From the NCBI RefSeq assembly GCF_018350175.1, contig NC_058380.1, positions 57,598,001 to 57,662,000 of the forward strand: a DNA stretch of 64,000 nucleotides, given 5' to 3'. The notes under the pieces were generated by a model. The model was given only the letters and a program-made list of their open reading frames with translations, searched no databases and was not told the origin of the DNA. The position numbers were made by a program, and so were the translations under genes. Shown piece by piece: positions 15,119 through 57,702 of the stretch. This stretch comes from Felis catus (Eukaryota). Position 1 is the first letter of the stretch, and the number at the start of each line of letters is the position of its first letter.

Positions 15119-15220
15119 TAGTCCCAGAAGCAATTTAAAGTTTGGAATGTCAAATGTGCACGGGGTACAGGCCCTAAGCATACCTGGGGCCTCCAGGGAC
15201 CACACACCCTGTCCCAATTA
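15119..15220 (-). promoter_or_regulatory. Candidate OR promoter module for OR copy 1
   Basis: cccagaagcaatttaaagtttgg (15123-15145), O/E-like ctccaggga (15191-15199) and homeodomain caatta (15215-15220). The 23-mer recurs upstream of other ORs. Confidence 0.6.
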
Positions 15221-15479
15221 GAGGTAACGACTGGGACACGGTCAAGGGGAGATGGACAAGAGCATACAGCAGATGCTGGCTTCCTCCAGAGCTTTCCCTG
15301 GGGTCTCAGAGAAGCCAGTGCTCGATTCAGGGACGGCGTACTTTGTCCCTATGTCGAAGTCCTAGATATCCAGAATGGGGAAGCAGGATAAATGTCTAAC
15401 AGCAGTAGCAGGATTGGCTGCATTCGTTGAGCGGCTCCCTTGTGCCAGTCACTGTGACGAACGCCTCACAAACACTGGT

Positions 15480-16033
15480 TTTAAGACGTTCTCCACTTCC
15501 TCTCCAGCACGTGTCTTTTCTTGTCTTTTTGATCCTAGGCATTCTGACAGGTGTGAGGTGGTATCTCATGGTGGGTTTAATTTGCATTGCCCTGATGATG
15601 AGTGATGTTGAGCATCGTTTCATGTGTCCGTTAGCCATCTGTAGGCCATCTTTGGAGAAATGTCTATTCAGGTCCTCTGCCCACTTTTAATCCAATTATT
15701 TGTGGGTTTTTTTTTGATGTTGAGTTATATTTTTTGCAAATATTTTCTCCCATACAGTTGGTTGCCTTTATGTTTAGCTTATGGTTTCCTTCGCTGTGCA
15801 AAAGCTTTTTAGTTTGCTGTAGTTCCAAGAGTTTATTTTTGCTTTTGTTTCCCTTGTCTGAGTAAACATATCCAGAACAATGTTGCTAAAGCCAATATTC
15901 AAGAAGTTTTCTTTAGGAGGTTTATGGTTTCAGGTCTTTAATCCATTTTTATTTTATTTTTGTGTATGCTAAAAGAAAGTGGTCCAGTGTCATTTTTTTT
16001 TTTTGCATGTAACTCTCCACTTTTCTCAACGCC
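15480..16033 (-). mobile_element. L1 ORF2 3'-region fragment (unit A)
   Basis: Antisense translation includes [28 protein letters not shown], typical of the L1 ORF2 C-terminal region. Confidence 0.88.
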
Positions 16034-16103
16034 ATTTTATTTTATTTTATTTTTAATTTTTTTAAAATTTACATCCAAATTAGTTAGCATATAGTGAAAC
16101 AAT
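16034..16103 (-). mobile_element. Very short felid L1 3'-end insertion
   Basis: T-rich tail followed by tttacatccaaattagttagcatatagtgaaacaatgatttcaggagtagattcctta, with ccattt on both sides. Confidence 0.7.
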
Positions 16104-16109
16104 GATTTC

Positions 16110-16333
16110 AGGAGTAGATTCCTTACCATTTATTTTTATTTTTATGTCTATTTATTTATTTTGAGAAAGTGAGCATGTGCGAGTAGGCAAGGACAGAGAG
16201 ACAGGAAGAGAGCGAATCCCAAGCTAGCTCCTCTCTGTCAGTGGAGAGCCCATCAGGGGGCTCTATCTCACCAGCCGTGAGATCACAACCTGAACTGAGT
16301 CGGACGCTTAACCAACTGAGAAACCCAGGAGTC
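16110..16333 (-). mobile_element. Older CAN-SINE at the duplication junction
   Basis: Diverged SINE body whose head abuts the start of unit B. Confidence 0.8.
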
Positions 16334-17662
16334 CTGACTTTCTGTATTCTTTTTAAATAAGTCTGTCAGTCTGCAAAGAATTTAGTATAACTTGGCCTAA
16401 AGCTGCTTCTATCCATCTACCACCATCTCTGAGACTCTCATTCATCTTCTGTCTGTTGGTCTAGAAAGGAACAATGTCTGGCTCATTTCCACATGGAACA
16501 CAGCACTGTGCAGCATTCGTGATACTACCACTGCCATCTGTAGTTCTATTGCGTTTACCATAAATAAGTACTCGTTTATATAGTATCTTATCTAATTTGT
16601 CTAAAATCAAATGGTTAGGTTTTAAATATGGAGAAATAGACTGAGAAAGATTAAGCAACCTGCCCAAGGTCATAGGTAAGAAAATGCTTCCCAGTGTTTA
16701 TTGTGCTGAGCTATGGAGGCTCAGAAATGCTACAGATTTTACATCTCTTGGACATTCACGGTGTATTTTAACATATTAAAGACTTTGAGAAGTTCTGGAA
16801 TGAAGAAATGTGTCAAATTTTACCCCACTAAACTCTTCAAATAATTTTAGCTNNNNNNNNNNNNNNNNNNNNNNNNNNNNNNNNNNNNNNNNNNNNNNNN
16901 NNNNNNNNNNNNNNNNNNNNNNNNNNNNNNNNNNNNNNNNNNNNNNNNNNNNNNNNNNNNNNNNNNNNNNNNNNNNNNNNNNNNNNNNNNNNNNNNNNNN
17001 NNNNNATCTAACAGAAAACTAGCTTCTCTGTTGGGAATTGTATAAGTGGTAAACATCAAATTCAAACTCTATACTCCTTGAATTTAACTTAGAAGAAGTG
17101 TTTCATAATGTGAAATGCATTGAGAAAAAATAGCCTCAGTTTTCTCATAGCTAAAAAGCAATTCAGTTCCTCAGGCTAGATTATTTCCACTCAAAAGCCC
17201 TCTGTGTGGAGACCTTGTCTTTGTCTCCTCTTAGTATTTCAGGCAAACTGAGTCTAATAATGAAAATGTCCACTTCCTCCTTGTTCCTGGCTGTCCTGGG
17301 GAGTCCAGTAGGGATGAAAAAGTTGCTGTGAGAGCCCTCTCACCTGTGTGTACTGACTGTGTAGCTCGGACACAGTATAGGCTATTCGGCTTGCTCTAAT
17401 GGTCCCTTTCTCCTCGGTTTTAGGATGTGTTCAGAATGTCTTTGTACATTACATTAGCGATTTATTGCCTGGCATCTGTTGAAGCTCTCAGATATCTGGC
17501 TAAAACTCAGAAGACACAATGTGAAAAGTTACACAATCCCTGAAAATGAACTAGAGGGCAAGCGATCATTTCAGTTAACATCACCTGGCTTTTGAGTGGC
17601 AGCTGCAATGATCAAAACCCTTGCTCCCTTGGAGGTAGGAACCACAGAGGACCCCTCCTCCA

Positions 17663-18622
17663 TCACTGGGTGAAGTATTTCCGAGCCACCAGGTTCCTCA
17701 CAGCAGCCTTCACGTCCTTGTTCCTGAGGCTGTAGATGACGGGGTTGAGCATGGGGGTCACCACCCCATAGAAGAGAGGGATGAGCTTATCTGAAAGGTC
17801 CTCTTTGTCTGCCCCCAGGGGATCCTTAGACTTGGGCTTCCTGTACATGAAAAATAAGGTCCCGTAGAAGATGACCACCACAGTGAGGTGGGCAGAGCAG
17901 GTAGAAAAGGCCTTTTTCCTCCCCTCAGCTGAAGGGATCCTCAGGATGGTAGCAATGATGAAGACATAAGAGACGGAGATGAACAGAACTGGGACCCCCA
18001 GGAAGATCACATTTGTCACTCCCATGCTGATCACATTGATGGAGATGTCAACACAGGCCAACTTGAGGACTGCCAGGATCTCACAGGCAAGGTGGTTGAT
18101 GACGTTGTTCCCGCAGAAAGGCAGCTGAATCGTCAGGGATGTGTGTACCACAGAAGCAGCCCCACCAATTGTCCAGGAGCTGACAGCCATGGATACATAC
18201 ACAGACCTGCTCATGACCACAGGGTACCTCAGGGGGTTACAGATGGCCACATAGCGATCAAATGCCATCACGCTCAGGAGCACACACTCTGTCCCTGCCA
18301 TGGCAAAGGAGAGGAACATCTGCATGGCACAGCCTGAGAAGGAGATGGTTTTCCTGGGAGTGAGGAAGCCATCCAGGACTAGAGGGANNNNNNNNNNNNN
18401 NNNNNNNNNNNNNNNNNNNNNNNNNNNNNNNNNNNNNNNNNNNNNNNNNNNNNNNNNNNNNNNNNNNNNNNNNNNNNNNNNNNNNNNNNNNNNNNNNNNN
18501 NNNNNNNNNNNNNNNNNNNNNNNNNNNNNNNNNNNNNNNNNNNNNNNNNNNNNNNNNNNNNGGGCTGAGAGTCCCAGGAGAATGAACCCCACCACGGGGG
18601 AGGACCAGTTGGCTTTTTCCAT
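17663..18622 (-). CDS. OR2S2: Olfactory receptor, OR37 subfamily, OR2S2-like (copy 2), 319 aa
   Basis: Same motifs as copy 1; six visible aa differences from it. 18388-18561 is masked. Confidence 0.93.
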
Positions 18623-19831
18623 GTGATATCCCTTCTGTCATCAGCAAAGTACAAAAGCAGCACATCAGGCTTTCTTGAGAAGAGTCTCAGGCATCTAGTA
18701 TGCCATCAAGTCTCTGCTACATAAGAGGAGAGCATGTGTGTGTAAGAGAAAAATGGCAGTAAGAGACAGTAAGTGGGAGTGTCCTTAGCTTCTAGATGAG
18801 AGAGGGTCGGGGGTGGAACACAACAGAGCTTAGAGTAGACTAGCACCAAGGAAAAGCCTCAAATGTTCCAGCCGACTGTGTGCGAGGGGTTTTTCTGATG
18901 TTTCATCCTCTCATGGCCCGAAAAAGCAACTGAGGCCCAGAGAGGGGTGTGACCTGTCTGAGTCTTCTGAGCAAGTTGCTGATAGAGGCGGGACTGGAGC
19001 CCAGTAGAGCTAATCCCCAGTCAAGGAGGACTTTTCCTCTGTTTTATGATCAACAGCTGGAAAATGCTGTAAATTATTTCTTTCTATAGAAGTTTCACCT
19101 AATCTGGGCTCTCTTAGATTCTCAGAGAGGAGAATCCCCAAGCTGATCCAATTCTTAGAATGGGCAAAGTTTTAAGCTTCTGTAAACTTTATTAACGTTT
19201 GGAAGCAACTTGTATAAAAGTGTTAACCCACATCCAGACAGAATGAAGCCTAGGTAAAGGCTCAGCCATAACGAGGATTGCTTCCTCAGCCTGCCCAGCC
19301 TCAGCAACACAGACTTGACTGTCATCTGAACTGGGATCTGCCTATTTTCACACACACTAATAGAAATTGGGGGAGGTTCCTTAGGGGGCAGAACTTTATG
19401 AAGCCAACACAAGGATTGACTGGAGTGATGGAACCCACACTATGGAATGGCAACTTGCAGCTCACTGGCCAGTTAGCACAGTTCTTAATAACCATGCTGA
19501 CTACAGTCATCAGACAGCAGGTTATGTGGCATTGACTTCTAATCCCAGCTCATTAGAATCTTGGTGACATTCTTAGCCAGGGGTGACTACGGAATGTTTT
19601 TTCTTTGTCCTTTTATGTTTATACTTTATTCTTGGGTAATATTCTGGCTCTCTGCCTCCATTCTTGTGTTCTACACAAGCAGCTAGCTTATCGGAAGACC
19701 TGTCTGCCTTTGTATAGAGGATTTCCAGGCTCTCAGCTGCAATTGCCCAGACTCTATATTCAGAATCCTCATTCATAATATTTCTATAGCTCTTTCTTAA
19801 TTGCAATGGTGCATATGTATGTGCGTGTGTG

Positions 19832-19868
<37 letters not shown>

Positions 19869-20471
19869 GCTGCTTCACCATGGAATTCTGCCCCAGCTTA
19901 TCTCCCACTCCTCCCAGTGGCTCTCCCAGCCCTTCCAGAAAATGAAAAGTAAACATTACAGTTGGTGCCACAAGCAGGATTCCATAGTGACAAGGATATG
20001 CTGTGATTTCAGAGGCCAAGGGCAGTGGCTTCTGTTAGAGAAGCCATCCTGTCTACGCCCACGAGCCGGGGCTGTGCACACAGAAGCATCTGCCCGTGAA
20101 CGATGTGCTGTGGCCATGAGTGCTGCACGGGATTTGCCCCGTGTGAGAGCTGCAGCCATGGAAGTCCTAGTGCCCAGCATGGAGCAGTGCTGAATGAAAG
20201 CTGGTTCAATTGGAGTGAACAGAACGACTAGGAAGATCTTGTGCACTGAGCCCAGAGCTCTGGGACCTGCCCCTGCCCGTGACATGGGTGTTCTGGGTGG
20301 CTAGAGCAAGTCCCTAAGCCTGTTTCCCATGTGCATCAAGAAAAGGCTGAACAGGTGCTCCCCAGAGTGTCCCAACTCTGTCATGGATTGCTCAGCACCA
20401 TTCTCACCAGGCAGGGCTCAGACTTTGGTGAAGGTGACTGCCTGCTCCTTTGCGTGTGTGCTATGGGGTGC

Positions 20472-20504
<33 letters not shown>

Positions 20505-22503
20505 CATGAGCACACATGGTGGGGAGATCTGAATGCTTGGTCTCCCATCAAGATATGGCCAGCTGGAAATAGGGCTGTATCAGGCTTTGGAGGAGAGTTG
20601 GGATGGAAGAAAACCAGGAGCTCTGACACCTACAGCCCCAACTGGGCAGATGTCCACCTGGGAGAGCGAGGAAGGGAAGGGAACACAAGGTAGTTAGGAG
20701 CCTATAAACCGTCATACTGCCTCTATACACTGTTTCATGGCCTCTCTGGAGAGCAGTTTGCCCAGGAAAAGGAAAAACCTGGAAAGCCCACATAACTCAG
20801 CAGTTCCACCCCTGGGAGTAAGTTCTAATGATTCAATGAGTGGAGGGCTGGTATCTCTCAATAAAGGCATTTATCACAGCCATTTTGTGAGTGAACATAG
20901 GAAACAAAATAACTGTCTACCAATAAATACCTAATGATACCGCTTCATAGAATGGAATGTTAGACATTAAAGTTACATTTATAATTTTTACACTATTACA
21001 TCATTACATTACAACAATAAATTCAAAGGGAGAACACAAAATTGTACACACTGTTATGATGTCAATTAGGTGAACAATATGTATTGATAAAAGTGACTCA
21101 AAAGAAATTATAGAAGAATCACTAGGGGAGGGGATTCCTCTTTTACCTCTTCAGTATTATCCAATTTTCTAATATTATGGGCACAAATTGTATTTGGGGA
21201 AAAAATTCTCAGTACAGTAATACCCCCCCCCCCCCCCGGTCTTACTTACCGACATTTTGCATTCAGAAGTTTCATTTCCTGCCCCACCACCACCTCCAGG
21301 TGTGGTCTGGAAGCAGAAGATGGTCTTTCTGAGAATGGTGAGGTCAGTAGTAGCCTCACAACACCTAGGTCACTCACCTCACTTCATTTCATCGTGTGGG
21401 CATTTTATCATCTTGCATCATCGCAAGAAGAATGCGGGGGGGCNNNNNNNNNNNNNNNNNNNNNNNNNNNNNNNNNNNNNNNNNNNNNNNNNNNNNNNNN
21501 NNNNNNNNNNNNNNNNNNNNNNNNNNNNNNNNNNNNNNNNNNNNNNNNNNNNNNNNNNNNNNNNNNNNNNNNNNNNNNNNNNNNNNNNNNNNNNNNNNNN
21601 NNNNNNNNNNNNNNNNNNNNNNNNNNNNNNNNNNNNNNNNNNNNNNNGATCTACTGGGGGTCTTGGGATGTATCCCCTGTGTAAAAGAGGAAACTACTGT
21701 ATCTATAGGAAGAAAGTGAGAAAAATGGAAAGAACTAGCCACGGAATGGGAATCAGACAGGGTTGGGTCCCAGCTTGCCTGTCTTGCTCACCTCTGTCCC
21801 TGAGGAAGGCTCAGTCTTCCAGGAAATCTCAGCAGGATGGGGATGGGAACATGGCTGCCTCTTTCCCTGGGCTCTGGGCTCCTCCCGGGGAGGGCTGAGC
21901 AGCAGTGTCAAGGCAGGGGCTTGGTCACTGGTGAGCTCTGTGGAGCACGAGGGACTGCCTGGGCTTAGCCTCAGCTGCTCCTCCCCACTCCAGCATCTGC
22001 TGCTCATAGGCAGTTGCAGCTGGAAGTTTCTTAGAGCAGAGGCAGGGTGAGGAGGAAAGTCCATCTTTGGAAAATGCTTGGCAAAAGTCATGGCCACCAC
22101 TTCTGTCCCCACCACAACCCAGTGCTCCCTACCTGCATCCTGCTTGCAGCCACTTGTCTGAGTCTCCTGATCCCAGACACAGTTCTCAACTCCACACTGT
22201 GCCCTGGGCCAGACCCTGGATGCCAGAGAAAGACCCCAGACACTCCCCTGCTGGATTTCCTTAACCTCTGAGACCCTCTTTCTTCTTCTCTCTGCTAAAT
22301 CCCTATGGCAATGTTAGCCCCTGCTGGTGTTTCTCTCCCATCCTTCTTCCTAGCTGTGCAGGCTGACCGTGTATTTCAACTACAGACTCTTTGTGGAGAG
22401 CACCTGTCATCCTGATGTGAGGCACAGAAATCCCAATGGTACATCTTCCCCAGCAGTGAAAGGAGTTCTCGGGCAGCAGCTGTGAACTCTGCAGGGACCC
22501 TGT

Positions 22504-22605
22504 TAGTCCCAGAAGCAATTTAAAGTTTGGAATGTCAAATGTGCACGGGGTACAGGCCCTAAGCATACCTGGGGCCTCCAGGGACCACACACCCTGTCCC
22601 AATTA
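22504..22605 (-). promoter_or_regulatory. Candidate OR promoter module for OR copy 2
   Basis: Duplicate of the copy-1 module: 23-mer at 22508-22530 and gtcccaatta at 22596-22605. Confidence 0.6.
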
Positions 22606-22864
22606 GAGGTAACGACTGGGACACGGTCAAGGGGAGATGGACAAGAGCATACAGCAGATGCTGGCTTCCTCCAGAGCTTTCCCTGGGGTCTCAGAGAAGC
22701 CAGTGCTCGATTCAGGGACGGCGTACTTTGTCCCTATGTCGAAGTCCTAGATATCCAGAATGGGGAAGCAGGATAAATGTCTAACAGCAGTAGCAGGATT
22801 GGCTGCGTTCGTTGAGCGGCTCCCTTGTGCCAGTCACTGTGACGAACGCCTCACAAACACTGGT

Positions 22865-23188
22865 TTTAAGACGTTCTCCACTTCCTCTCCAGCACGTGTC
22901 TTTTCTTGTCTTTTTGATCCTAGGCATTCTGACAGGTGTGAGGTGGTATCTCATGGTGGGTTTAATTTGCATTGCCCTGATGATGAGTGATGTTGAGCAT
23001 CGTTTCATGTGTCCGTTAGCCATCTGTAGGCCATCTTTGGAGAAATGTCTATTCAGGTCCTCTGCCCACTTTTAATCCAATTATTTGTGGGTTTTTTTTT
23101 GATGTTGAGTTACATGTGTTCTTTATATATTTTGGATATTAACCGAATATGTTATCAAATATGTTGTTTGCAAATACTTTCTCCCATA
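22865..23188 (-). mobile_element. L1 ORF2 fragment (unit B)
   Basis: Same L1 as in unit A, ending at ctcccata. Confidence 0.85.
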
Positions 23189-23638: not shown

Positions 23639-23676
<38 letters not shown>

Positions 23677-25262: not shown

Positions 25263-25492
25263 TTTATTTAAAAAAAAATTTTTTTTTTCCAACGTTTATT
25301 TATTTTTGGGACAGAGAGAGACAGAGCATGAACGGGGGAGGGGCAGAGAGAGAGGGAGACACAGAATCGGAAACAGGCTCCAGGCTCCGAGCCATCAGCC
25401 CAGAGCCTGACGCGGGGCTCGAACTCCCGGACCGCGAGATCCTGACCTGGCTAAAGTCGGACGCCCAACCGACTGCGCCACCCAGGCGCCCC
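25263..25492 (-). mobile_element. Young felid SINE (SINEC_Fc-type) with 16-bp TSD
   Basis: TSD tcttttgtcagattta at 25247-25262 and 25493-25508; CpG-rich body. Confidence 0.95.
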
Positions 25493-25584
25493 TCTTTTGT
25501 CAGATTTAACCCTGTATGAGGATATTTATATTTTAACATAAACATATTAATTTTTATATTTAAATATATAAATACATATATACT

Positions 25585-25809
25585 TTTTAATTTTTTAAAA
25601 TGTTTATTTATTTTTGAGAGAGAGAGAGAGAGAGAGACAGAACATGAGTGGGGGAGGGGCAGAAAGAGAGGGAGACACAGAATCCGAAACAGGCTCCAGG
25701 CTCTGAGCTGTCAGCACAGATCCCAAAACAGGGCTTGGACCCATGAACCACGAGATCATGACCTGAGCTGAAGTTGGATGCTTAACTGACCGAGCCACCT
25801 AGGCACCCC
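25585..25809 (-). mobile_element. CAN-SINE
   Basis: Full body flanked by aatacatatat. Confidence 0.9.
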
Positions 25810-25945
25810 AATACATATATTTATATTTCTTTATGTCTTTAAAAATATTTCAAAATCTGTTGGTAGAATATAGAAATACAATATTTGTTTTTGTATATTG
25901 ATTTAGTGTTGAGGAACCTTACTAAACTCTTTTAAATATTTATAA

Positions 25946-26155
25946 AATTCTTTTAATGGTTTTATTTATTTGCTAGAGAGAGACAGAGCCTGAGTGAGGG
26001 AGAGGCAGAGAGAGAGGGAGACACAGAATCTGAAGCAGGCTCCAGGCTCTGAGCTGTCAGCAGAGATCCCAGTGTGGGGCTCAAACTCGCAAACTGCGAG
26101 ATCATGACCTGAGCTGAAGCCAGATGCTTAACTGACTGAGCCACCCAGGCGCCCC
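25946..26155 (-). mobile_element. CAN-SINE with 21-bp TSD
   Basis: TSD aactcttttaaatatttataa at 25925-25945 and 26156-26176. Confidence 0.93.
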
Positions 26156-26324
26156 AACTCTTTTAAATATTTATAATATATCTTCAAGTTATTTTAGATT
26201 TTCTATATAGTAGGCAATAATAACACCAGTGAACAATGAAAGTTTTTTTCTTCCTTCAAAATTGTTAGACTTGTCTGTTGCCCTACTGCACTGGCTGGGA
26301 CCTCCAATTCAATGCTGAAAGGTT

Positions 26325-31930: not shown

Positions 31931-32890
31931 TCACTGGATGAAGTGTTTCTGAAATACCAGGTTCCTCACAGCGGCCTTCACGTCCTTGTTCCTCAGGCTA
32001 TAGATGATGGGGTTGAGCATGGGGGTCACCACCCCATAGAAGAGGGAGATGAGCTTATCTGAAAGGTCCTGCTTGTCTGCCCCCAGGGGGTCCTTGGATT
32101 TGGGCTTCCCATACATGAAAAGGATAGTCCCATAGAAGACGACCACGACTGTGAGGTGGGCAGAGCAGGTGGAGAAGGCCTTTTTCCTCCCCTCAGCTGA
32201 GGGGATCCTCAGGATAGTGGTGAGGATGAAGATGTAGGAGATAAAGATGAACAGAACTGGGACCCCCAGGAAGATCACATTGGCTACTGCCATACTGATC
32301 ACATTGATGGAGATATCAGCACAGGCCAACTTCAGGACAGCCAAGATCTCACAGGTGAAGTGGTTAATGACGTTGTCACCACAGAAGGGCAACCGCATTG
32401 CTAAGGATGTTTGCACCATGGCAGTCGTGCTTCCAGCTGCCCAGGAGCTGGCAGCCATGGGCACGTAGACAGCCTTGCTCATGACCACAGGGTACCTAAG
32501 AGGGTTACAAATGGCCACATAGCGATCAAATGCCATCATGCCCAGAAGCACACACTCTGTGGCTCCCATGGCGAAGGAAAGAAACATTTGCACAGCACAG
32601 GCTGAGAAGGGTACAGTTTTCCTGGGGGTCAGGAAGCTGTCGAGAATGAGGGGGANNNNNNNNNNNNNNNNNNNNNNNNNNNNNNNNNNNNNNNNNNNNN
32701 NNNNNNNNNNNNNNNNNNNNNNNNNNNNNNNNNNNNNNNNNNNNNNNNNNNNNNNNNNNNNNNNNNNNNNNNNNNNNNNNNNNNNNNNNNGGAGGATGAG
32801 CACAAAGAACGTTTTCTCTAGCTTTGGGTGGGCTGAGAGTCCCAGGAGAATAAACCCCATCACAGGAGAAGTCCAATTGGATCTCTCCAT
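31931..32890 (-). CDS. Olfactory receptor, OR37 subfamily (OR13C7/OR2S-like), 319 aa
   Basis: [20 protein letters not shown] and [12 protein letters not shown] motifs, NWT sequon, extended EL3 [15 protein letters not shown]. 32656-32790 is masked. Confidence 0.93.
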
Positions 32891-33930
32891 GGTGTATCTT
32901 CCCTCAGAAAGCCAACTTCATGATTCTCTGATGCCTAAAGTGGCCAGAAAGCCAGTGAGGAAACTTGCCTTGCTGAGCAGCTGGAGAACAGCCTTGGCAA
33001 TCTGGGTCTCTTTACATTGTTCTAATAAAATGCAGAGAAATTAGTCAAAATCTACTTTGTGATATTTGGCTACCCATGGAGGTGTTTGACATTTCACAAA
33101 ATTGTATTTAATTTTCTGAATCACATTTAAGATTAACATCACATGTTTACTTCAGGCTATACCATGTGTGGCTGATCCATTTTAATCAATTTTGTGAGAA
33201 GTGCTATACTCCATTTGTATGAATTTTTATTCTTTTGGGACATAAGTCTGGTGGAAATAACAGATCTTCATTCTCAATTGCTGATCCAAGCAATTTTAGA
33301 TACGAATTTCCTCCTCTTTTTTAGTTCTCTCTCACAGTCCACAGGCCCCTGGGATATTTATTCATGCATTCCTTCACTCACCTGCCAAACTCTTTGGAGC
33401 ACTTACCAAAAGAATTGTACTTCACCAGTCACTCAATGTATGGGGATTATCAACTCCCTTTTCCTCTCTGGGCCTCTGTTTTCCTGATATGCTCTTTGGA
33501 ATGGGATATATTTAGAGATATTCTATCCAGGGACAAAATGATCTCATGAATTCCTCATTCTTCACTTTCTGTCCCACCACTAAGATGTCCTTCTCTCTTT
33601 CCTTCAAGTTCTCCCCATGCCACTTAGTCACAAGGAATGAAGCCAGGAATTGGGCTGGGCTCACAAGAGTTTACGTATTCTTTTACAAATTCTCTCTTAC
33701 CTTTTCTGTAAACAGGTCAATAAAGAACACCACTTTTCTGAGGTCTTGGAATAGTCCAGAGGCTGAACATAGCCAATCTGATCTGAAAGTAGCAGACAGA
33801 GGAGTTAGCACCTGAAATGGATGAGAGCTAAGTTTTCTGGTCTTCGTTCTGGGTTTGGGTAAAATCCACAAAGGACCATGTATTACGTACATGAAGCCAG
33901 TTAAATTCCACCCCGCTATTGGGATTATTC

Positions 33931-34020
33931 TAGTCCCTGAAGTGATTTAAAGTTTAGAAACTGAAGTGACAAAGTTTAGAAACTTTATACATCTGGGATT
34001 ATGTCCCCAAGATCCAATTA
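33931..34020 (-). promoter_or_regulatory. Candidate OR promoter module for the OR at 31931-32890
   Basis: ccctgaagtgatttaaagtttag (33935-33957) and gtccccaagatccaatta (34003-34020, O/E-like plus HD). Confidence 0.65.
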
Positions 34021-34879
34021 TTTTGAAGTCCCTCCAGAAATACTTTCTTCCCCCTCCTTTCCTTTATACCCATCCTGCTGAGCTATTGGAAAACATTAGA
34101 GAGGACAGGTCATCCTGGTCCTGCCAGAATTAACATAAACCCCAGTCAGTGAGACCTCTCAGTAGAACCCATGATAGGTCTAGGAGAGTGTGAAACTCAC
34201 TACACAGGACAGATCCTTGTAGCTCAATACCACTGGCATTTCCAAATTCAGGATCTTGGGGTTGGAAAGAATCAAGTGACCTAGAAAGTTTTTCCTTGTC
34301 CGTGTCCCACCACATAGAGTCCGAACTCCTAGCACAGGTTAGGCCTCTACAGGGCATTGGGAGAGTCTGGTCCTAGCTCTTGCCATGAGAGTTTCATAGG
34401 TATAGCAGCTGTGTGCTTGAAAAAGTCCACTTGATTGCAGAAGTGATGTCCTGTTGTTTGAAGTCTTTCTTATGATCATGTGTTTTATCTTCTCCAGAGA
34501 AGAAATTTTTGTTGGGATCGGTAAGGGACAGTTGGCCAATGTCATGGGATGAGGGAGGGGGTATAGGGACTCTGTTTCTTATACATTTTTTTTTGCCTAA
34601 TCCTCCTGTTTTAGTAGCACCCCTTCACCCCTGGACCTAGAGGATGTGGTGCAATGGCTGCTCAGTGCTGGAGATCTGGTTGCAGTGCAGTGCTCTCCTA
34701 GTTTCTGGCTCAGGATGTAGGTCTGTTAGATCTGCAGTGGAAATGACCACATCCACTTTCCAGCCTTCAGGATGTTATCACACTGCTGTCCCCCTTCTTC
34801 TTAATCTTGTGGATTTTGTCACTTTAAAAAAATGAAACAAAACCAAAAAAGTTAACTATAGTTTTTGTGGGTTGCAAGA

Positions 34880-35130
34880 GGGAGCAAAATTAGGTGCATG
34901 TGTTCAGTCCTCCTTTATGCCTCAGTCCTGATTCTGTGCGGTTTCCAGCATCCCCTGTTATTTTCTTATTTATGTTAGCCATTTATCTTGTCTGTTTCCA
35001 TCTGCTAGAGTGCAATTTTCACAGAGGCAGGGATTTTTTTCTACACTGTTTACAAACGTATCTGAAGCATAAAAACTGAACCTGGCTTACATTAGGCATT
35101 CAATGAATAGCTGCTGAATAAACTAGTAAA
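34880..35130 (+). mobile_element. L2 3'-end fragment
   Basis: ...gaggcagggattttt...ggcattcaatgaatagctgctgaataaa resembles the L2 terminus. Confidence 0.55.
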
Positions 35131-35436
35131 TGAATTTGTGACCTACCCTTAATTTCTCCTCTGCTCCATGTTAACCCTTCTTTTTATATTTTTATTTTTA
35201 TCCCATCTTTTTCAATTTCTAATTTTGTAAACATTTAATAATGTATATAATATCTTGGTACAGGAGAACATTTATGTATTTTATAAATAAATAACAGTGT
35301 AAATTATAAGGAAGCATGATTTTAAAACCTAGAGCACCGCTGATCCCAGATACCTAGCTTCTGGCTATGGTTCCACCTTTTCAAATGTTTAACAAACCTG
35401 TCTTTTCTAAGTGGCTCTTACATATTGGAAACATCT

Positions 35437-35661
35437 ATTTTTTTTTTTAAATTTTTTTAACGTTTATTTATTTTTGAGCCAGAGAGAGACAGAGCATGAA
35501 CAGGGGAGGGGCAGAGAGAGAGGGAGACACAGAATCGGAAACAGGCTCCAGGCTCTGAGCTGTCAGCACAGAGCCCAACGCAGGGCTCGAGCTCACGGAC
35601 CCTGAGATCATGACCTGACCCGAAGTCGGATGCTTAACCGACCAAGCCACCCAGGCGCCCC
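35437..35661 (-). mobile_element. Felid SINE with TSD
   Basis: gaaacatctat on both sides; consensus-like body. Confidence 0.93.
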
Positions 35662-36098
35662 TAGAAACATCTATCTTGAGCAGAACCAGCTTGCAGAATT
35701 CAGAATTTCTGGCCCTATTCAGAGAGGATCTGCCATCTTACTTGTCTGAACTACATACCTTCCTTTGTTGCGCTCTTCCTGTTTCAGAAAGTCTGAGCTT
35801 TGAGATGCCTTGAGGGTCTTGTTTGGAGTCTCTCTCTCTCCCCAAGTTGGATTTCTCCTGCAACTCTTCCACAGACTGTCACCCCTCAGTACGACACATG
35901 TGAGCTTGGGTCTCTTGTGGAAAGCTCAGGAACAAGTGGAAGGGCTCACACCATTGCCTCAGCTATTATGATTGGCCCCAATACTGACAGCCACACAGGA
36001 ATCGGGAAACATATCACAGGACAGCCTGACTCACTTCTGCTGTTTACAGGAGCTGTGTCCACATTAGCTCTTAACATTTTATTTTGTTGGTATAACTT

Positions 36099-36868
36099 TG
36101 TTGGTGGGTGGACTAGGGATACCTCACGCTCTGACACAGCCCATCCAAAAGATATTGCTGAGGCCTGTTGGTCTCATCATGAGAAAGAATTCAAGGACAA
36201 ACAACACGGCAGATGAGCAGTAGAAACAAGAGGGTTTATTAAGATAAAAGTACACTCTTTAGTTGTGAGAGTGGGTGAGCTTAAAGGGGAACTATGCCCA
36301 CTGGAGTTTGGATTTCTATCTTTAATTGACAGTTGTTAACGAAGGGATAGAATATTCATTACTTGAAGGTGGAGATTTTCTTGGAAGCAGGGTGGTCTCT
36401 TCCAGGAATGTGGGTTATATACCTTTTCTTCCTTACTTGGTCAGGGGTTTTCTGTCATGGCACCCTTAGGGAGGAGACTTTGTCAGCCATCTTGGGCCTG
36501 TCTGGTTTGATCTGGTTTCTTATGGCTTTGTTTTGCTGTGCTGCCAGGATAGGCCTTTGACTTTAGCCATGACTTCCTGTTTGGTGGCTTCCAGGCATCC
36601 TGTTAGAACCTAACTAATTGCTTTAGCATGCCTGCGTGGCTCAGTCGGTGAAGTATCCAACTTCAGCTCAGGTCATGATCTCATGGTTTTTGAGTTTCAG
36701 CCCTGGTTCTGGCTTTCTGTTGTCAGCATAGAACCGACCCACTTTGGATCCTCTGTCTCCCTCTCCCACTTACACACCCCTACTCTTGTGCGTGCTCCCT
36801 CTCTCTCAAAAATAAATAAAACATTTTAAAAAATAAATGCTTAAGAACCTAACTAACTGCTTCTAACA
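36099..36868 (-). mobile_element. Solo LTR (ERV1-type) with an internal SINE
   Basis: TGTT...AACA termini and a 4-bp TSD actt (36095-36098 / 36869-36872); antisense AATAAA near 36236. Confidence 0.75.
36626..36838 (+). mobile_element. CAN-SINE nested in the LTR
   Basis: SINE body flanked by agaacctaactaa[t/c]tgctt. Confidence 0.88.
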
Positions 36869-41289: not shown

Positions 41290-42249
41290 TCACTGGGTGA
41301 AGCATTTCTGACTCACCAAGTTTCTCACAGCAGCCTTCACGTCCTTGTTCCTCAGGCTGTAGATGATGGGGTTGAGCATCGGGGTCACCACCCCATAGAA
41401 GAGGGAGATGAGCTTGTCTGAAAGGTCCTGCTTGTCTGCCCCCAGGGGGTCCTTGGATTTGGGCTTCCCATACATGAAAAGGATAGTCCCATAGAAGACG
41501 ACCACGACTGTGAGGTGGGCAGAGCAGGTGGAGAAGGCCTTTTTCCTCCCCTCAGCTGAAGGGATCCTCAAGATAGTGGTGAGGATGAAGACGTAGGAAA
41601 CAAAGATGAACAGAACTGGGACCCCCAGGAAGATCACATTTGTCACTCCCATACTGATCACATTGATGGAGATGTCAGCACAGGCCAACTTCAGGACAGC
41701 CAGGATCTCACAGGTAAAGTGGTTGATGATGTTGTTCCCACAGAAGGGAAGTCTCATTGCAAGGGACGTTTGAACCATGGAGGCANNNNNNNNNNNNNNN
41801 NNNNNNNNNNNNNNNNNNNNNNNNNNNNNNNNNNNNNNNNNNNNNNNNNNNNNNNNNNNNNNNNNNNNNNNNNNNNNNNNNNNNNNNNNNNNNNNNNNNN
41901 NNNNNNNNNNNNNNNNNNNNNNNNNNNNNNNGAAGGAAAGAAACATTTGCACAGCACAGGCTGAGAAGGGTACAGTTTTCCTGGGGGTCAGGAAGCTGTC
42001 GAGAATNNNNNNNNNNNNNNNNNNNNNNNNNNNNNNNNNNNNNNNNNNNNNNNNNNNNNNNNNNNNNNNNNNNNNNNNNNNNNNNNNNNNNNNNNNNNNN
42101 NNNNNNNNNNNNNNNNNNNNNNNNNNNNNNNNNNNNNNNNNNNNNNNNNGGAGGATGAGCACAAAGAACGTTTTCTCTAGCTTTGGGTGGGCCGAGAGTC
42201 CCAGGAGAATAAACTCCGCCACAGAGGCAGTCTGGTTGACACTTTCCAT
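41290..42249 (-). CDS. Olfactory receptor, OR37 subfamily (OR13C7-like), 319 aa
   Basis: NQT sequon, [19 protein letters not shown], extended EL3 and [12 protein letters not shown]. Two masked blocks (41786-41931, 42007-42149) hide TM1-2 and the MAYDRY region, but the length is preserved. Confidence 0.88.
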
Positions 42250-44549: not shown

Positions 44550-44638
44550 CCCTGAAGTGATTAAAAGTTTGGAAATGGAATCATACAAAGTCAGAAAATT
44601 TTTTATACTTCTGGGAAAATGTCCCCAGGATCTAATTA
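44550..44638 (-). promoter_or_regulatory. Candidate OR promoter module for the OR at 41290-42249
   Basis: ccctgaagtgattaaaagtttgg (44550-44572) and gtccccaggatctaatta (44621-44638). Confidence 0.65.
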
Positions 44639-49344: not shown

Positions 49345-49345
49345 T

Positions 49346-49384
<39 letters not shown>

Positions 49385-49388
49385 TTTT
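49345..49388. repeat. (TTTA)n simple repeat
   Basis: Direct reading. Confidence 0.9.
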
Positions 49389-49769
49389 CTGTTAAATTCT
49401 TTCTTCTAACTCCACAGCTATGTTGTGTTTGCATTGGAATACCTTCTGGACTGAAATGATAGCTCTCTTGAAAGCCAGACAACCTGATTCAGAATCTCTA
49501 TGATATATGGTCCTACTGTTGGATACATAGTAGTCAGAGGTTGAGTTTCCTAGTTAATAGATTATGGATTCAAAGTATGAATTTTAGTGGGACACAGATA
49601 TTTAGTCCATAGCAGCCCTCATTGGGTAAAAGCAGCCCTATCTCCTCCTGATTACTAGGATCAGTTATATGTAACTAGGAGTGACTCTTTGCCTTGCCTT
49701 CTGGTCTCTTGGCATAAGAAGCCCAACATGACTGGGGGATAGCCATAGCTTTAAGTTTAGTAGATATGA

Positions 49770-51235: not shown

Positions 51236-51259
51236 ATGAGACTCTTTCTGTGTCCTCTG

Positions 51260-52110
51260 GTGGAAGCAACACTTCTCTGGGAACTAGGACACTTATACCT
51301 ACAAAGCCTAATGTTACAGTGACTGAAAGTAAAAATTCCCCCAGTAGCTAACTGGGGTTACTCTTATCCCTGTCATCAGGGATACTCTTGCTACCACCCA
51401 TGATTCCTAGACCATGTATTTTGCCTTTTGGGGGCACAGAACCATAAAACAGCCATTAATGTAGGATCCATATACCCCATTCTTGAAGAATATTATCACC
51501 AGGCTGGTGCCTTAGCAGTGCTTTCAAAAGGCCATTATGTCATTCCCTCAGACAAGTTATTTCTGGATGGTGCAGTATATGGAAGGATCAGTGGATCTCA
51601 TAATCACTATCTCACAATGACACCAACTTTGCTAAATGAGCCTTGGACCAATGAAATATTACACAGAATAAGTCAAACCCTCTGTGAGTTGTCAGATGGT
51701 GATGTTAGCTAATGCCCTTCAGAGAGAAAAGGTAACCCATACTCAGAAGAGGTGTTGATTTTAATCAAGATGAATCACTGCACTTTCAGAATGGAAATGG
51801 CCTAATGTAATCAGCTTACTGCCAAGTGGCTGAATAGTCTCTTCGAATGAGGGTTGGTCTCTGTTGCTGAGAGTTTGGACAATTAGCTGCTGAAGTAGCT
51901 ACATCAGCCTTTGTGAGTGAGTCCCTGTTGTTTAGCAAATAACCTCCTGCAATCATGGCTACTCTGTTCATTGTACCAATGATAGAGGTGGAATGACATC
52001 AGTTCCCTGAGTCATTCTGTTTGGTTGTTGAGCCTAGTGGAGAAGATGGAGGCTCTGAAGATGCTCCTAGTACATGAGCAGCTAAGGAGATGAGAGAAAC
52101 CAGACTCAGC
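51260..52110 (-). mobile_element. Degraded ERVL internal fragment (integrase core)
   Basis: The antisense strand reads, through stops and frameshifts, EIH*SFHILHHPEITCLRE*HNGLLKALLRHQPGDNILQEWG and YGSVPP..KIHG, paralleling ERVL integrase (GIHWSYHVPHHPEAAGLIERWNGLLK...GDNTLQGWG, from recall). Confidence 0.8.
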
Positions 52111-53237
52111 TTCAAATACTGAAATAAAAACTGCTATAAGACAGAGTGGGACTTTCCCACCAGTGGATGGAAACACAGATCCCAGGAAATTCACAGGTGG
52201 AGATCACTTGAGATTTAGTACTCCCCCTTCATTGTGTGGAAGAATATACCTGAGATTCTTCAAGAGCAGAGAATACACTCTTGGTCTCTCAGCTCTATGT
52301 GGCTGGTCAGGGATTTAAACCTAAACATTTTATATTACATCAGCCTCTGGACATGTTCCACATTTACAGGTGATGGGATCCACAGAGAGCAAAGCCACTG
52401 TAGCAGAAAGGGAGTACTGATTACAAGAAGCACTGCATATTGAGTTCACAACAGTTGTCTCAAAACTGAATTCTTTAAGACTTCTGTGCATTATAGCCTA
52501 GCACTCCATTTGCACAAGGCACATGATAGAGAATATCTACTTTATACATTAGTAATCATATTAGATATGACTTTTATTGCCCTCTTTCAAAGAAAGTAAC
52601 TTAATCTAGATTATTCAAAAATACAATCTAATATAGAGGAGTGTCCTTTAGAAACAAAAGGGCAGGAATACAGGCTAGGCCTAGGAAAAATTGGAAACTG
52701 AGAACTGGGAACATATGAGGAAGCCCTCAATCATCGGTTCTTTGGCTGTTCTTTCTTTTCTCTTTGCAGACTTGTTTTCTCTTTACCACCCCAGTACACG
52801 TGGGTGAACACAATTACCCCCAAACTCCCAAGTTTGTATGTTATGGATGCAGTGACTCATTTCTTGGGTATTAACAACAATCCCCAAAATCTGGCAGAAA
52901 GAATCTGGTTGGTCGAGGTAGGGTCAGTGTTGCACAGCTCAGACATGCATAACTTACCTGTGTGGATAAGGAAGAAAGGTGACAGAGGAAATGCCCAGAG
53001 AAATGAGATTCTTGACTCCTAAGCTAGAAAGCCAAACAAAAAGGCACTATAATAATATATCAGAAGTGATTCAGTTAACTGTGGAATTGAACTGTCTTTG
53101 TGTCATAAGCCTTCCTCAGAGGAATTATTTAACATATTTCATTAATAATAAAAATGTTCATTTATTGAGAGGATATTCTCTGTTAGCCCTTGTGTATCAC
53201 ATATGTATATATATTAAATTAAAATGAAATATATTTA

Positions 53238-53355
53238 TTTTTTATTAATATAATTTATTGTCAAATTGGCTTACATACAACACTCAGTGCTCATCCCAAC
53301 AAGTGCCCTCCTCAATGCCCATCACCCATTCTCCCTCTCCCCACCCCCTCCTAAG
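53238..53355 (-). mobile_element. 5'-truncated carnivore L1 3' end with 13-bp TSD
   Basis: T-rich tail plus ttgtcaaattggcttacatacaacactcagtgctcatccc...; TSD tgaaatatattta at 53225-53237 and 53356-53368. Confidence 0.88.
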
Positions 53356-54384
53356 TGAAATATATTTAATCCCCACAACAATTCCATGGGGTTGGCTTCA
53401 TTATGTCCATTTTACAAATTAAAAAACTAAGAGTCTATAAGATTAAGTAGCTTTTTAAAAATGTATCTGAAGTTACACAGGCAGGGGCACCTCCACAACA
53501 GTCAGGCTCCAAAGTCCATGCTCTTAAACCACAAGAGTAATTACCAGTGGATTTGTAGCATTGGTGCCAGTGTCCAGTCCAAATCCTGAAGAGACAGAGG
53601 AAATTGAGTTTGACCATTAGAGTCTGGATGGTTGCAAACATTAATCCCAGGAAAATAAAGGGACTCAGAATATAAACTTTGCATTGCAGTAATAATGAAC
53701 TGAAGAGTGCTAGAAATTTTATTCTTGGCCTGCAGTATCTGGAGTTTGATTAGTGTTGACACGAAATCCTCCTTCACAAATTTGGGTAGGAATAGATGTG
53801 CTTTATGTACAATAAAAGAAGATGGAGCCAAAATAAGCTCTAGGATATTAAGCAGGAAATAATTAAACAGGAAGCACTCTGGGCCCCCTGCAGGGTTAAA
53901 TGGTATCGTTTGGGATGTCTTGGTGTTGGTAATTTTGCAAAATGGCAGGTTGGTTTTCAGTTTGGACACCAATTAAGAAGTGACTTTTCCTCACTGCCAT
54001 ACCCCTCCCCCCCTTGCATAGTAGAGCAGAAAACAACATAATGGGCACAAATTGCAGCTGGTCAGCACATGAACAAGGAAAGTATGTTTTTCTTACAAAG
54101 TTTTCCATTTTTATTTATTTTTTTCATAGCAAAAATAAAATATAAGAGTCACTTATCCTTGTTTCTAGGTGACGTAGCACAGTCCTCTCCCCTCTTCATT
54201 CCAAAGATTTGATGTTCATTGTCAATCACTCAGGAAAGTCCCATCCTGATGCGCATTGTTTGGGCAGTTTTGTGATGAGACTGGTGTGTAGGACCATCGA
54301 ACAAATCTATGCTTATGAAGCAGTCATTTCCTAGGAGATCTGTGTGCACAGAGCCACAAGGTATGCTGCTTCCCCCTACTCTCA

Positions 54385-55338
54385 CTAGGCAAAGCATTTC
54401 TGACTCACCAGAGTCTTCACAGCGACCTTCACATGCTTGTTTCTGAGACTGTAGATGATGGGGTTGAGCATGGGAGTCAGCACTCCATAGAAGAGGGATA
54501 TAAGCTTGTCTGAAAGGTCCTGCTTATCTGCCCCCAGGGGGTCCTTGGATTTGGGCTTTGCGTACATGAAAAGAATGGTCCCATAGAAGATGACCACCAC
54601 AGTGAGGTGGGCAGAGCAGGTGGAGAAAGCCTTTTTCCTCCCCTCAGCTGAGGGGATCCTCAGGATGGTAGCAATGATGAAGACATAAGAGCCAGAGATG
54701 AACAGAACTGGGACCCCCAGGAAGATCACATTGGCTACCCCCATACTGATCACATTGATGGAGATGTCAGCACAGGCCAACTTCAGGACAGCCAGGATCT
54801 CACAGGTGAAGTGGTTGATGACATTGTCCCCACAGAAGGGTAATTGTACTGCAAGAGAGATCTGCACCAAGGAGTTGGCTCCACCAGCCACCCAGGAGCT
54901 GATAGCCATGGGCACATAGACAGCCTTGCTCATGACCACAGGGTACCTCAGGGGGTTACAGATGGCCACATAGCGATCAAATGCCATCATGCCCAGAAGC
55001 ACACACTCTGTGGCTCCCATGGCAAAGGAGAGGAACATCTGCATGGCACAGCCTGAGAAGGAGATGGTTTTCCTGGGAGTGAGGAAGCCATCCAGGACTA
55101 GAGGAANNNNNNNNNNNNNNNNNNNNNNNNNNNNNNNNNNNNNNNNNNNNNNNNNNNNNNNNNNNNNNNNNNNNNNNNNNNNNNNNNNNNNNNNNNNNNN
55201 NNNNNNNNNNNNNNNNNNNNNNNNNNNNNNNNNNNNNNNNNACAGGATGAACACAAAAAACATTTTCTCAAGCTTTGGCTGATCTGACAGCCCCAGCAAG
55301 ACAAATCCCGCTACAACAGATTGGTTGCCCACTTCCAT
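54385..55338 (-). CDS. Olfactory receptor, OR37 subfamily (OR13C7-like), 317 aa
   Basis: NQS sequon, all visible OR motifs, extended EL3. Ends KCFA-TAG directly followed by TGA. 55107-55241 is masked. Confidence 0.92.
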
Positions 55339-57632
55339 TTTAAATTCTCTCTTCTACCCTCGGGAAAACTGAGGACAGCAAGCACATGTTTATAGGGATC
55401 AATATGTGGGGATTTAAATGACAACTTATAATTAAATTTATCCTTTGGCATGCCAACTTATAATAGTAACATTGAAATTACAAAAATCGTTGTCCACTGA
55501 AGTTACCTTAAAAGTCAGGATATGTCAAATCAAAAGCAGGAAGAGCAGACCCTGGAAACTTAATCAAATCATGATATATGATAGAATTTTAGACAGATCA
55601 ATAGTGTTGACACACTTGAAGGAAGGGTCTACATGGGAACCATAAAAGAGGAACCCTGAAGTTGTACTGTAATGCATGGGTCCAGACCACTGATTGGCTC
55701 TTCTGGCCAGCCCTCCCTGCCTGTAATTGTCCCTGCAGTATCCTTAGGGGCTTCTGGCTGTCATACTCAGTGGTGATAATCACTGACATCACTTCACTTA
55801 CTCTAATCCTGTGCTTATACAATAATTTTCTGACAATAATTTGAGGACTACGGAGAGGATGTGATGAGCAGAGGCCAGGAACATTAGAATCTGCGTAGCA
55901 TTTATATTTGTTACTTGATGCCTACTTTATACTTCATTTCTCATGAGTTTGGTTGATTTTCCTTCATTGCACTGTCAATAGGGACTCTCTGGCTAATAGT
56001 TCATGGAGACCTAACAAAAGCACTTCTACATTCCCCCTCTCTAACCATGGCCTTTGTCCACAGCATTGCAGTTTCCCTTAGTCTGTTCCAGCCCCCAGTG
56101 CTAGGGAACAGGGGTAGAATCCAAGGACAAATGTCCTTCATGCCTCCCAGTGTGAGCATTTGTGACTCTATAAGCAAGCTCTATGCTTTTGGAGCTGTTT
56201 TATAAGTCACAACTCCTTACTCAGACCCTTTTATATCTGAGTTGACCATTAAAACCACTGCAATACCACAATAATGCTTTCTCTCCTATAGAAGAGCAGA
56301 CAGTTCTACCCAGCCTTGCAGAGGGGTCACCCCAAAGAGGCATTTAACGTAGGATGTGCTCCAGTCATGTAGACCAATTAATCCAATATATTAGAGAAAA
56401 CCTCAAACCTTGGCTTCTCATGTTAAACATGAAGAAACAGAAGCTCACAAGTGCTCCCTCATTTGTGCCAGAGCAGGTCTACTGAGGAGCCAAGGACCCA
56501 CTATGAAATCCTGATCATCCTCGCTTTCCCTAGGACACTCATGAAAAATAGAGATGTCACACCTTTCTCTAAGATATCTGCCTTGTAACAGAGCTTGGGT
56601 AGGGGGCTGTCCCTGGGCTTCACATGTTGCATCTGTGACTATTACCCTGTTGCTGCTAGCCTGAAGCTGTCCTCATGCAATTATCAGAGGACATTAACTA
56701 TGGGCACTGAAAATACTTGGAAAAAAGAGATCTGTTTTTAGAGATATTAGTACTATTGGCTGCAGAATCTCAAGCTTGGCAGAAATCTCAAAAATTAACT
56801 GGTTTGCCTCTTTCCCCTCGATTGTATGAATGTCTATGAAATGCAATTTTCCCATTTCTGCTTTGAACACCTTGAGCTATGTGAGTGCATGGCTCCCATT
56901 CCTTTGTGAAACAGCCTTGATTGTTGGAAAGTTTTCCCTTACATTGAACAGAACTTCCTTCTTCTAATGTTGTCCCCATACCTTACCTCCTACTGCCCCC
57001 CACTGGCCTAAACTCCCAGGACATGCCTGCTCCCTTCCCCTATAAAAGCCCTTCAGAGACATGGGAGCTGTGAGCTGGTCCCTACTCACAACTATCTTTT
57101 CTCTTCTCCCACCTACTTGGAGAAGTTTTGGCTACAGAGAGAGCTCAGTATACATCCAGTATGAGGATGAGGCTATGGTGGGGTCAGGAGCTTACCTAGA
57201 CAGGAGGTTTCATGGCAGGGAGGATGCTGGAAGGCTCCTGGCTTTGGAGGTGATAGCTTCAACTGCCCACCTTGACCATCTCCTGTCTAGCTCTGTCTGT
57301 TGAGGCTGTGCCTGGAAATGTGCAGCAAATTCTGTTTAGCTATCTTGGAGCTAAGCAGTCCCTTCAAATTTCACAGAAGGTAAAGAAAATTCAGGGTTGG
57401 CCATAGCCAAAGGGGCTCTAGCTGCTCTCTTCCCTGGCCTTCTCCATGTCTGGTGAGATAATAGCAGGAAGGACACCTCAAGTTGCTGCTTCCCAGTGGC
57501 CCTGCAGTCATGCCCAACCTGCGTGATCGGGGCAGACACACTCTGCTCTCTGCCCCTTGCCCTCTCTCTATAGGTTCCGTCAAAGAACCACGGAGGAATT
57601 TAGAGTTCTGGTTGTTTGGGGGCAGTTTTAAT

Positions 57633-57702
57633 CCCAGAAGCAATTTAAAGTTTGGTGGAGGCCTCACAGGAGTTTAGAGCCTGTGTCCCATGAACTCAAT
57701 TA
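57633..57702 (-). promoter_or_regulatory. Candidate OR promoter module for the OR at 54385-55338
   Basis: cccagaagcaatttaaagtttgg (57633-57655, 23/23 identical to 15123-15145) and gtcccatgaactcaatta (57685-57702). Confidence 0.65.

Follow-up and report, generated by a model that had tools for sequence, protein, structure and literature searches.

The promoters of the mouse OR37 (MOR262) odorant receptor family reportedly share motif blocks, as described in work of Hoppe et al. from 2003 and 2006 and of Zhang et al. from 2007. Reviews cite Hoppe 2003/2006 for homeodomain (HD) and O/E sites in odorant receptor (OR) promoters. Our literature search found no text printing the letters of the OR37 blocks; subscription journals lay outside its scope, so that no absence from print is implied. 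Mammalian OR promoters in general carry O/E and homeodomain sites and, in a subset, a TATA element, according to Young et al. 2011 (PMC3247239). In the Greek Islands described by Monahan et al. 2017 (PMC5608512), the composite consists of an HD hexamer, one base and an O/E 10-mer, the arrangement of the Sfaktiria probe, and is defined by a matrix score above 10 together with Lhx2/Ebf co-binding. The OR37 subfamily itself is distinguished by six residues inserted into extracellular loop 3 (PMC3499762).

The DNA analysed here, referred to as the window, is a stretch of 64,000 nucleotides from Felis catus (NC_058380.1, positions 57,598,001 to 57,662,000), and coordinates are counted from its first letter. 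It contains six OR37-type genes on the minus strand, genes 1 to 6, at 10269..11228, 17663..18622, 31931..32890, 41290..42249, 54385..55338 and 60711..61667; a seventh, gene 7, lies beyond the window on the plus strand with its ATG at 72679. Genes 6 and 7 score above the curated Pfam 7tm_4 threshold, and the other cluster genes are close paralogues. All seven carry the six-residue loop 3 insertion of the subfamily, the span from TM6 to TM7 being 51 residues, against 44-45 in two neighbouring ORs. Two minus-strand relatives, the minus-strand OR37 genes and a last plus-strand gene are accompanied by a second cluster and a lone gene, a layout equal to that of mouse in PMC3247239 supplement 1, where the match is one of gene order and strand only; the OR37 gene names used here rest on this synteny.

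A conserved 23-mer, AAACTTT-AAAT..-CTTCWGGGA, had been described upstream of five of the six ORs, and it is indeed present at all five sites, on the minus strand: 15123..15145 (gene 1), 22508..22530 (gene 2), 33935..33957 (gene 3), 44550..44572 (gene 4) and 57633..57655 (gene 5). The distances to the ATGs, 3917, 3908, 1067, 2323 and 2317 bp, also agree with that description. The count does not, since all six genes have a copy, the sixth lying upstream of gene 6 at 64150-64172 in continued window coordinates, 150 bp outside the window. A seventh copy, at 69675-69697, is on the opposite strand and lies upstream of gene 7. The block therefore stands upstream of seven of seven OR37-type genes in sense orientation, and flips together with gene 7. 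When the window was shuffled 100 times with its dinucleotides preserved, matches with up to three mismatches averaged 0.01 (maximum 1); this test overstates significance because the pattern was derived from the same sites.

The block belongs to a larger module. O/E-HD strings with a 7-bp spacer were confirmed at 34003, 44621 and 57685, and correspond to an HD site (TAATTG in gene 3), one nucleotide and an O/E-like 10-mer on the minus strand at 34004..34020 (gene 3), 44622..44638 (gene 4) and 57686..57702 (gene 5), which is the Greek-Island composite spacing. The HD site lies one base from the O/E 10-mer in genes 3 to 7 and in several other family promoters, and not in genes 1 and 2, in which gtcccaatta (15211 and 22596) and ctccaggga (15191 and 22576) were found as previously claimed. 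The sites of these two genes are rearranged, also on the minus strand: at 15190..15220 a TAATTG adjoins GGGA and is accompanied by a near-consensus O/E site (one mismatch to TCCCYNGRGA), and at 22575..22605 gene 2 has upstream HD and O/E-like sites. Elsewhere the module's O/E-like sites deviate from TCCCYNGRGA by two to three mismatches, which we count against a promoter reading. The bare TAATTR-N7-GRGA pattern is unspecific, with six matches in 18 control OR upstream regions. The 23-mer's own 3' half forms an O/E-like half site, and in a matrix test an inverted copy of the block, the left arm, was detected about 24 bp upstream of it in 12 of 18 family promoters, which are related by descent and therefore not independent; plain local alignment of arm against arm made the inverted repeat visible in only four of the 18. 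This left arm occupies 33981..33998 in gene 3 and 44597..44616 in gene 4 (both minus strand), and is absent in genes 5 and 6. By eye, most copies have a second AT-rich block about 55 bp downstream of the first. The order HD, O/E, TATA-like element and transcription start site (TSS) proposed in the preliminary description is accordingly incomplete, as the O/E-like half in the 23-mer, the inverted arm and the second AT-rich block add to it.

Genes 1 and 2, with their modules, lie within a recent tandem duplication of period about 7.4 kb (8946..23115), whose units are 95-99.5% identical and differ at none of 111 four-fold sites, and copies 1 and 2 are thus one observation. Among the other paralogues, four-fold coding sites differ by 0.08-0.33. 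Copies 1 and 5 had been noted as identical in surroundings that do not align. This stands and extends to copy 6, the three having a block identity of 1.00 with flanks at 0.40-0.51 and shuffled sequence at 0.47-0.48; around copies 3, 4 and 7, the sequences can be aligned. Block identity amounts to 83-100% between paralogues with flanks at or near the level of shuffled sequence.

Exact matches to the 22-mer core in the 2.4-Gb genome are these seven only, all in the cluster. A profile trained on six cluster promoters found sense-oriented diverged copies upstream of eight further family-262-like genes or pseudogenes (E < 0.01) and, run against the upstream regions of 18 unrelated ORs, each about 9 kb long, matched nothing at E <= 10. 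Several genes of cluster II gave weak profile matches or none, which also counts against the promoter reading. On a pattern allowing five mismatches the two neighbouring non-OR37 ORs had appeared to lack the module; the profile overturned this for one of them (E 7.6e-10), and matched the other weakly (E 1, or 0.029 with a wider profile that includes five matrix-chosen cluster II sites and whose matches there are therefore partly circular). A low-sensitivity DNA search with the 196-bp gene 7 module returned only itself and gene 3. The earlier interpretation as an OR37 promoter is thus borne out in that the module is specific to the subfamily and follows gene orientation, and needs amending in that the module extends beyond this cluster and runs through both family clusters. 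The module resembles the mouse OR37/MOR262 blocks in family, two-cluster layout and strands, HD and O/E sites and a position matching mouse TSS distances; the species differ, and the likeness is drawn from these features, not letter by letter. It shares its site classes with general OR promoters (PMC3247239), and differs from them in having long blocks at fixed spacing, confined to one family and absent from the 18 unrelated upstream regions.

Its position agrees with that of the TSSs of syntenic mouse genes. The mouse TSS-to-ORF distances given in supplement 1 of PMC3247239 are 749, 1997, 2746, 3665 and 6124, and the cat module-to-ATG distances of 824, 2277, 3004, 4114 and 5412 track them (Pearson 0.98, p 0.003) over five pairs, which draw on five of the nine mouse family genes with a TSS and take orthology from gene order and strand only. 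In the supplements of PMC5608512, the 300 bp upstream of the mouse TSS have composite scores of 9.53 for Olfr155 and 6.34 for Olfr71. The Olfr156 and Olfr267 promoters score low there (1.02 and 1.97), and these values count against the promoter reading. The same supplements give Olfr156 a co-bound Lhx2/Ebf peak at its TSS.

RNA evidence is available for gene 3. In the contigs of one study (X2, X7, X14), transcripts of this gene start 2 kb or more further upstream, with the module spliced out. The furthest upstream exon seen in an alternative transcript is 35759..35955, whose 5' end is a minimum extent, set by 30 letters at the start of the loose end; a further upstream exon, 34201..34821, is followed by an intron (34200-33783) that removes the module. 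A 5' exon downstream of the module, 33701..33782, has its acceptor at 33782 in the RNA contigs and, by sequence, a donor AAG/GTAAGA at 33700 (all three exons on the minus strand). Like splice donors occur in genes 3, 4 and 7, 257-278 bp downstream of the block. Read depths in X2 were 28.3 for the module-skipping junction, 19.8 for the unspliced contig across the module and 46.6 for the shared exon, so that no excess is left for starts inside the module, and this too counts against a promoter. In two studies, contigs stop at 34023/34024, a short way upstream of gene 3's HD site, which is a weak hint. Runs X5 and X6 contained shallow patches only.

It is conceivable, and in our judgement quite unlikely, that the module works as an enhancer linked to its gene, resembling a small Greek Island, and that the main start may lie elsewhere, as for gene 3. 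The RNA that skips the module, the composite spacing of HD and O/E and the dyad architecture would fit this, as would the listing of the mouse Olfr156 promoter region as the island Makronisos in PMC5608512; in the same source, however, Makronisos overlaps the annotated TSS. The strict sense orientation of all cluster copies, the agreement with mouse TSS distances and the splice donors downstream in genes 3, 4 and 7 also speak against an enhancer. Compared with the Greek Islands of PMC5608512, the module is gene-proximal and fixed in orientation, the HD-proximal half of its O/E site is degenerate, and two inverted blocks follow. The preliminary description also suggested that the 23-mer might be an extended homeodomain site, comparable to the 13-mer present in elements H and P, and not core promoter. 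The AACTTT stem of the block also occurs in the H, P and J elements, a single mismatch separates copy 4, and likewise copy 7, from the J-element HD1 (PMC7804114), and a gene-less weak module match (G000:C31:57574874-57574970) has a true TAAT at the equivalent place. The TAAT core is nevertheless missing from six of the seven cluster copies, gene 4 having the only one, an A is kept at that position in 17 of 18 family promoters, and the copies differ from the H/P 13-mer by 3-5 mismatches in the register tested, which leaves this suggestion weak and the explanation improbable.

Duplication could also have left such blocks behind, as neutral remnants of copying or gene conversion or as fragments of an interspersed repeat. 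Copies 1 and 2 arose by recent duplication, and the low four-fold differences indicate genes that are close or partly homogenised. Against this, the flanks have decayed to shuffle level and the block has been kept, also in front of genes whose proteins share only about 56-77% identity; no spread beyond the family was seen, and five of the seven places with the composite plus AT-block pattern are family promoters, against two control matches. A check for copies dispersed away from OR genes, proposed with the initial description, revealed none among the exact genome-wide matches to the core. A neutral or repeat origin is largely refuted, and we regard it as highly improbable.

Taken together, we consider it probable, with good though incomplete confidence, that the module acts as proximal promoter for the odorant receptor genes of OR37 / family-262, having been passed on by gene duplication and maintained by selection. 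A homeodomain factor, Lhx2 or Emx2, would occupy TAATTR in olfactory neurons in cooperation with an O/E (EBF) dimer seated on the weak O/E site one base away, and the O/E-like half sites of the two inverted arms would add occupancy. Direction would come from the AT-rich TTTAAAT element; the second AT-rich block is the better TATA candidate, as it lies downstream of all O/E-like sites. Transcription would then start within about 250 bp downstream, and in genes 3, 4 and 7 the GT donor that follows the block would close exon 1. Gene 3 is also transcribed, in some tissue, from a start further upstream, bypassing the module. More speculatively, and with considerable reserve, the family-262 promoter might be a self-contained enhancer-like dyad, in which an Lhx2/Ebf composite is followed by two inverted arms (O/E half plus AACTTT) separated by about 24 bp and retained in both clusters, with one AACTTT-reading factor on both arms helping to set patch-like receptor choice.

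To our knowledge, the determinants of the patch-like expression of OR37 genes are only partly understood. The present gain is incremental, given that shared OR37 promoter blocks have reportedly been published for mouse; the dyad and the composite spacing may not have been described before. If the promoter reading is right, it places the likely promoters of an entire odorant receptor family from a non-rodent mammal at base-pair resolution, and naturally occurring variants for testing are at hand in genes 5 and 6, without the left arm, and genes 1 and 2, without the composite spacing.

Six OR reading frames, in part covered by N, lie on the minus strand of the window. The 23-mer block that was proposed to lie, with accessory homeodomain (HD) and O/E-like strings, upstream of five of them is present at 15123, 22508, 33935, 44550 and 57633, and has no other window match at up to three mismatches; a shuffled window gave at most one match. 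The accessory strings were likewise found in place. Copies 1 and 2 lie in one 7.4-kb tandem duplicate (95-99.5% identity), and therefore count as one. Genome-wide, the pattern has six exact matches; the sixth, at window coordinate 64150, precedes gene 6 by 2505 bp. A seventh OR, on the + strand (ATG 72679), has a copy 3004 bp upstream that differs by one mismatch and lies on the other strand from the rest. In L007, the DNA that follows the window, the sixth module spans 150-215 on the minus strand (block L007:150-172, HD/O-E L007:199-215) and the seventh lies on the + strand (HD/O-E L007:5609-5625, block L007:5675-5697), ahead of the seventh OR37-type gene (ATG L007:8679); both modules and this gene are outside the window and part of the same finding. 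The module is borne out, and is found at all seven genes and in both clusters of the family.

A 22-mer core pattern covering all seven copies matches 2.43 Gb of genome exactly at seven places and no more, and three of its near matches, at C31:66.02-66.08 Mb, fall within a second cluster of close relatives (65.76-66.09 Mb), so the module is not an interspersed repeat, the case that the preliminary description had named as fatal to it. At up to two mismatches the core has 60 genome matches, against 24 for the reversed control. The HD/O-E pair followed by the AT block at 50-58 bp gave seven genome matches, five of them family promoters, and two control matches.

Genes 6 and 7 pass Pfam 7tm_4, and in all seven genes the loop 3 region is six to seven residues longer than in neighbouring ORs, a mark of OR37 according to PMC3499762. 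In a tree of 24 family proteins (midpoint root, without outgroup) the seven group together as one supported clade, and their order and strands, by which they were named, agree with the mouse MOR262 genes in supplement 1 of PMC3247239. Genes 1 and 2 (duplicate 8946-23115) arose when an OR gene was recently duplicated in tandem together with its 5' region, as a 7.4-kb unit; their proteins differ at a few positions, chiefly in TM3 and at the C-terminus. Genes 3 (31931-32890) and 4 (41290-42249) differ at 6/77 four-fold sites, although their flanks are hardly more alike than shuffles; for genes 5 and 6 the figure is 11/104. This suggests that coding regions underwent gene conversion.

In the order of transcription, the first element is TAATTR, separated by one base from an O/E-like 10-mer that has GGGA at or near its end; by a loose pattern this pair occurs in genes 3-7 and seven other family promoters (12 of 18). 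The Sfaktiria composite probe, as described in PMC5608512, has the same HD-O/E spacing. The O/E-like sites are two to three mismatches off the consensus printed in PMC3247239 (TCCCYNGRGA), except that in genes 1 and 2 sites close to the consensus take their place. Next, in most promoters, comes TCCCWGAAG-N3-6-AAAGTT, an inverted copy of the block, mostly ending 21-26 bp before it. With a leave-one-out matrix this arm reaches p < 0.05 over dinucleotide shuffles in 12/18 promoters and is absent from genes 5 and 6; simple alignment recovers it in four of the 18. The block itself follows (AACTTT-AAATYR-CTTCWGGGA), with its TTTAAAT columns kept in 17-18 of 18 promoters, some of which were anchored on that string, and then a further TCCC half site and a second AT-rich stretch, by eye about 55 bp after the block start. 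Genes 3, 4 and 7 have strong GT donors 257, 261 and 278 bp past the start of the block, respectively.

It had also been suggested that the block may be an extended HD site rather than a TATA box. A single mismatch separates copies 4 and 7 each from the J-element HD1, in the sequence that PMC7804114 gives for it, but TAAT occurs in copy 4 only and A is retained at that position in 17/18 family promoters; a canonical homeodomain reading is not supported by these sequences. The first TTTAAAT could act as a TATA box. The second AT-rich stretch appears the better candidate, because O/E-like half sites lie directly downstream of the first, in the place that the initiation complex would take up.

Six cluster promoters, without copy 2, were made into a DNA profile. 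The sequence searched with it comprised 224 kb surrounding the window, 410 kb from the second cluster, the lone relative found at 71.6 Mb and the upstream regions of 18 unrelated ORs. Eight more family genes or pseudogenes proved to have a copy in sense orientation upstream (E < 0.01), and there were zero matches at E <= 10 in the 18 unrelated regions; at several second-cluster genes the match is weak or absent. Paralogues of the cluster share 83-100% identity in the block, against 38-60% for flanks 100-200 bp off and 44-50% for shuffles. At C31:65.87-66.00 Mb, the second cluster contains two to three copies of a unit that comprises several OR genes, some copies with module-like matches on both strands. 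A wider profile gave a weak gene-less match (E 0.0069) at C31:57574874-57574970, minus strand, which could be the counterpart of one of the two islands that are listed for mouse between Olfr71 and the OR37 genes. This locus has a TAAT-bearing AACTTT element, and TAATGA beside an O/E-like site.

Module-to-ATG distances of 824, 2277, 3004, 4114 and 5412 bp match mouse TSS-to-ORF distances of 749, 1997, 2746, 3665 and 6124 bp (Olfr275, 267, 155, 71 and 270; PMC3247239, supplement 1). The correlation (Pearson 0.98, p 0.003) is over five pairs set by order and strand, with 4/9 mouse family genes with a TSS omitted as ambiguous; omitted Olfr156 (2547 bp in that supplement) would suit gene 5 (2317) or gene 6 (2505). 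A single mm9-to-mm10 offset of 12,873 places the Olfr155 and Olfr267 promoter rows of the PMC5608512 supplements exactly on TSSs. Composite-motif scores there, in unnamed rows that we assigned to genes, are 9.53 for Olfr155, 1.97 for Olfr267, 6.34 for Olfr71 and 1.02 for Olfr156. The same source has the island Makronisos co-bound by Lhx2 and Ebf within 500 bp of an OR TSS and marks the TSS of Olfr156 as the site of an island; in olfactory neurons both factors therefore bind the promoter region of at least one mouse OR37 gene.

These distances agree with the proposed TSS near the module, whereas the RNA of gene 3 speaks against it. Contigs from coded runs of one study carry GT..AG joints from 34201 to 33782 (X2, X14) and 34281 to 33782 (X14), and a loose contig end at 34824 (X2, X7) maps to 35762 through a GT..AG intron. 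The transcripts, as far as contigs, which cannot show starts, reveal, begin at least 2 kb upstream, and the module is either spliced out or read through; the alternative 5' exons that bypass it lie within 33701-35955 (minus strand; donors 34201 and 34281). X2 depths (spliced 28.3, unspliced 19.8, shared exon 46.6) leave nothing over that starts within the module would explain. In sense orientation, some 180-200 bp upstream of the most distant point mapped, lies a dispersed repeat (36150-36628, minus strand) with TATA-like and AATAAA motifs, LTR-like in our reading rather than by library match; among the 53 matches listed, other copies are mostly 66-77% identical. A plausible account is that this repeat may drive an upstream start in a non-olfactory tissue. 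The window also contains SINE-like repeats of ~220 bp at many places (e.g. 3229-3458, 25273-26157, 35439-35662), in many copies.

The inference that this is an OR37 promoter gains from the position relative to mouse TSSs and from the presence of the module at all seven genes, but gene 3 RNA bypasses it. In the papers of Hoppe and colleagues, conserved motif blocks are said to lie immediately upstream of the TSS, reportedly also in dog and opossum. By their titles and one-line citations, Hoppe et al. 2003 dealt with the promoter elements of family 262 and the factors that interact with them, and Zhang et al. 2007 with promoter elements that control clustered expression; the inverted dyad may already stand in figures or supplements of earlier OR37 promoter papers. 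The module is most probably the known OR37/family-262 promoter in another mammal, to which the inverted arm and the composite spacing may be the new additions.
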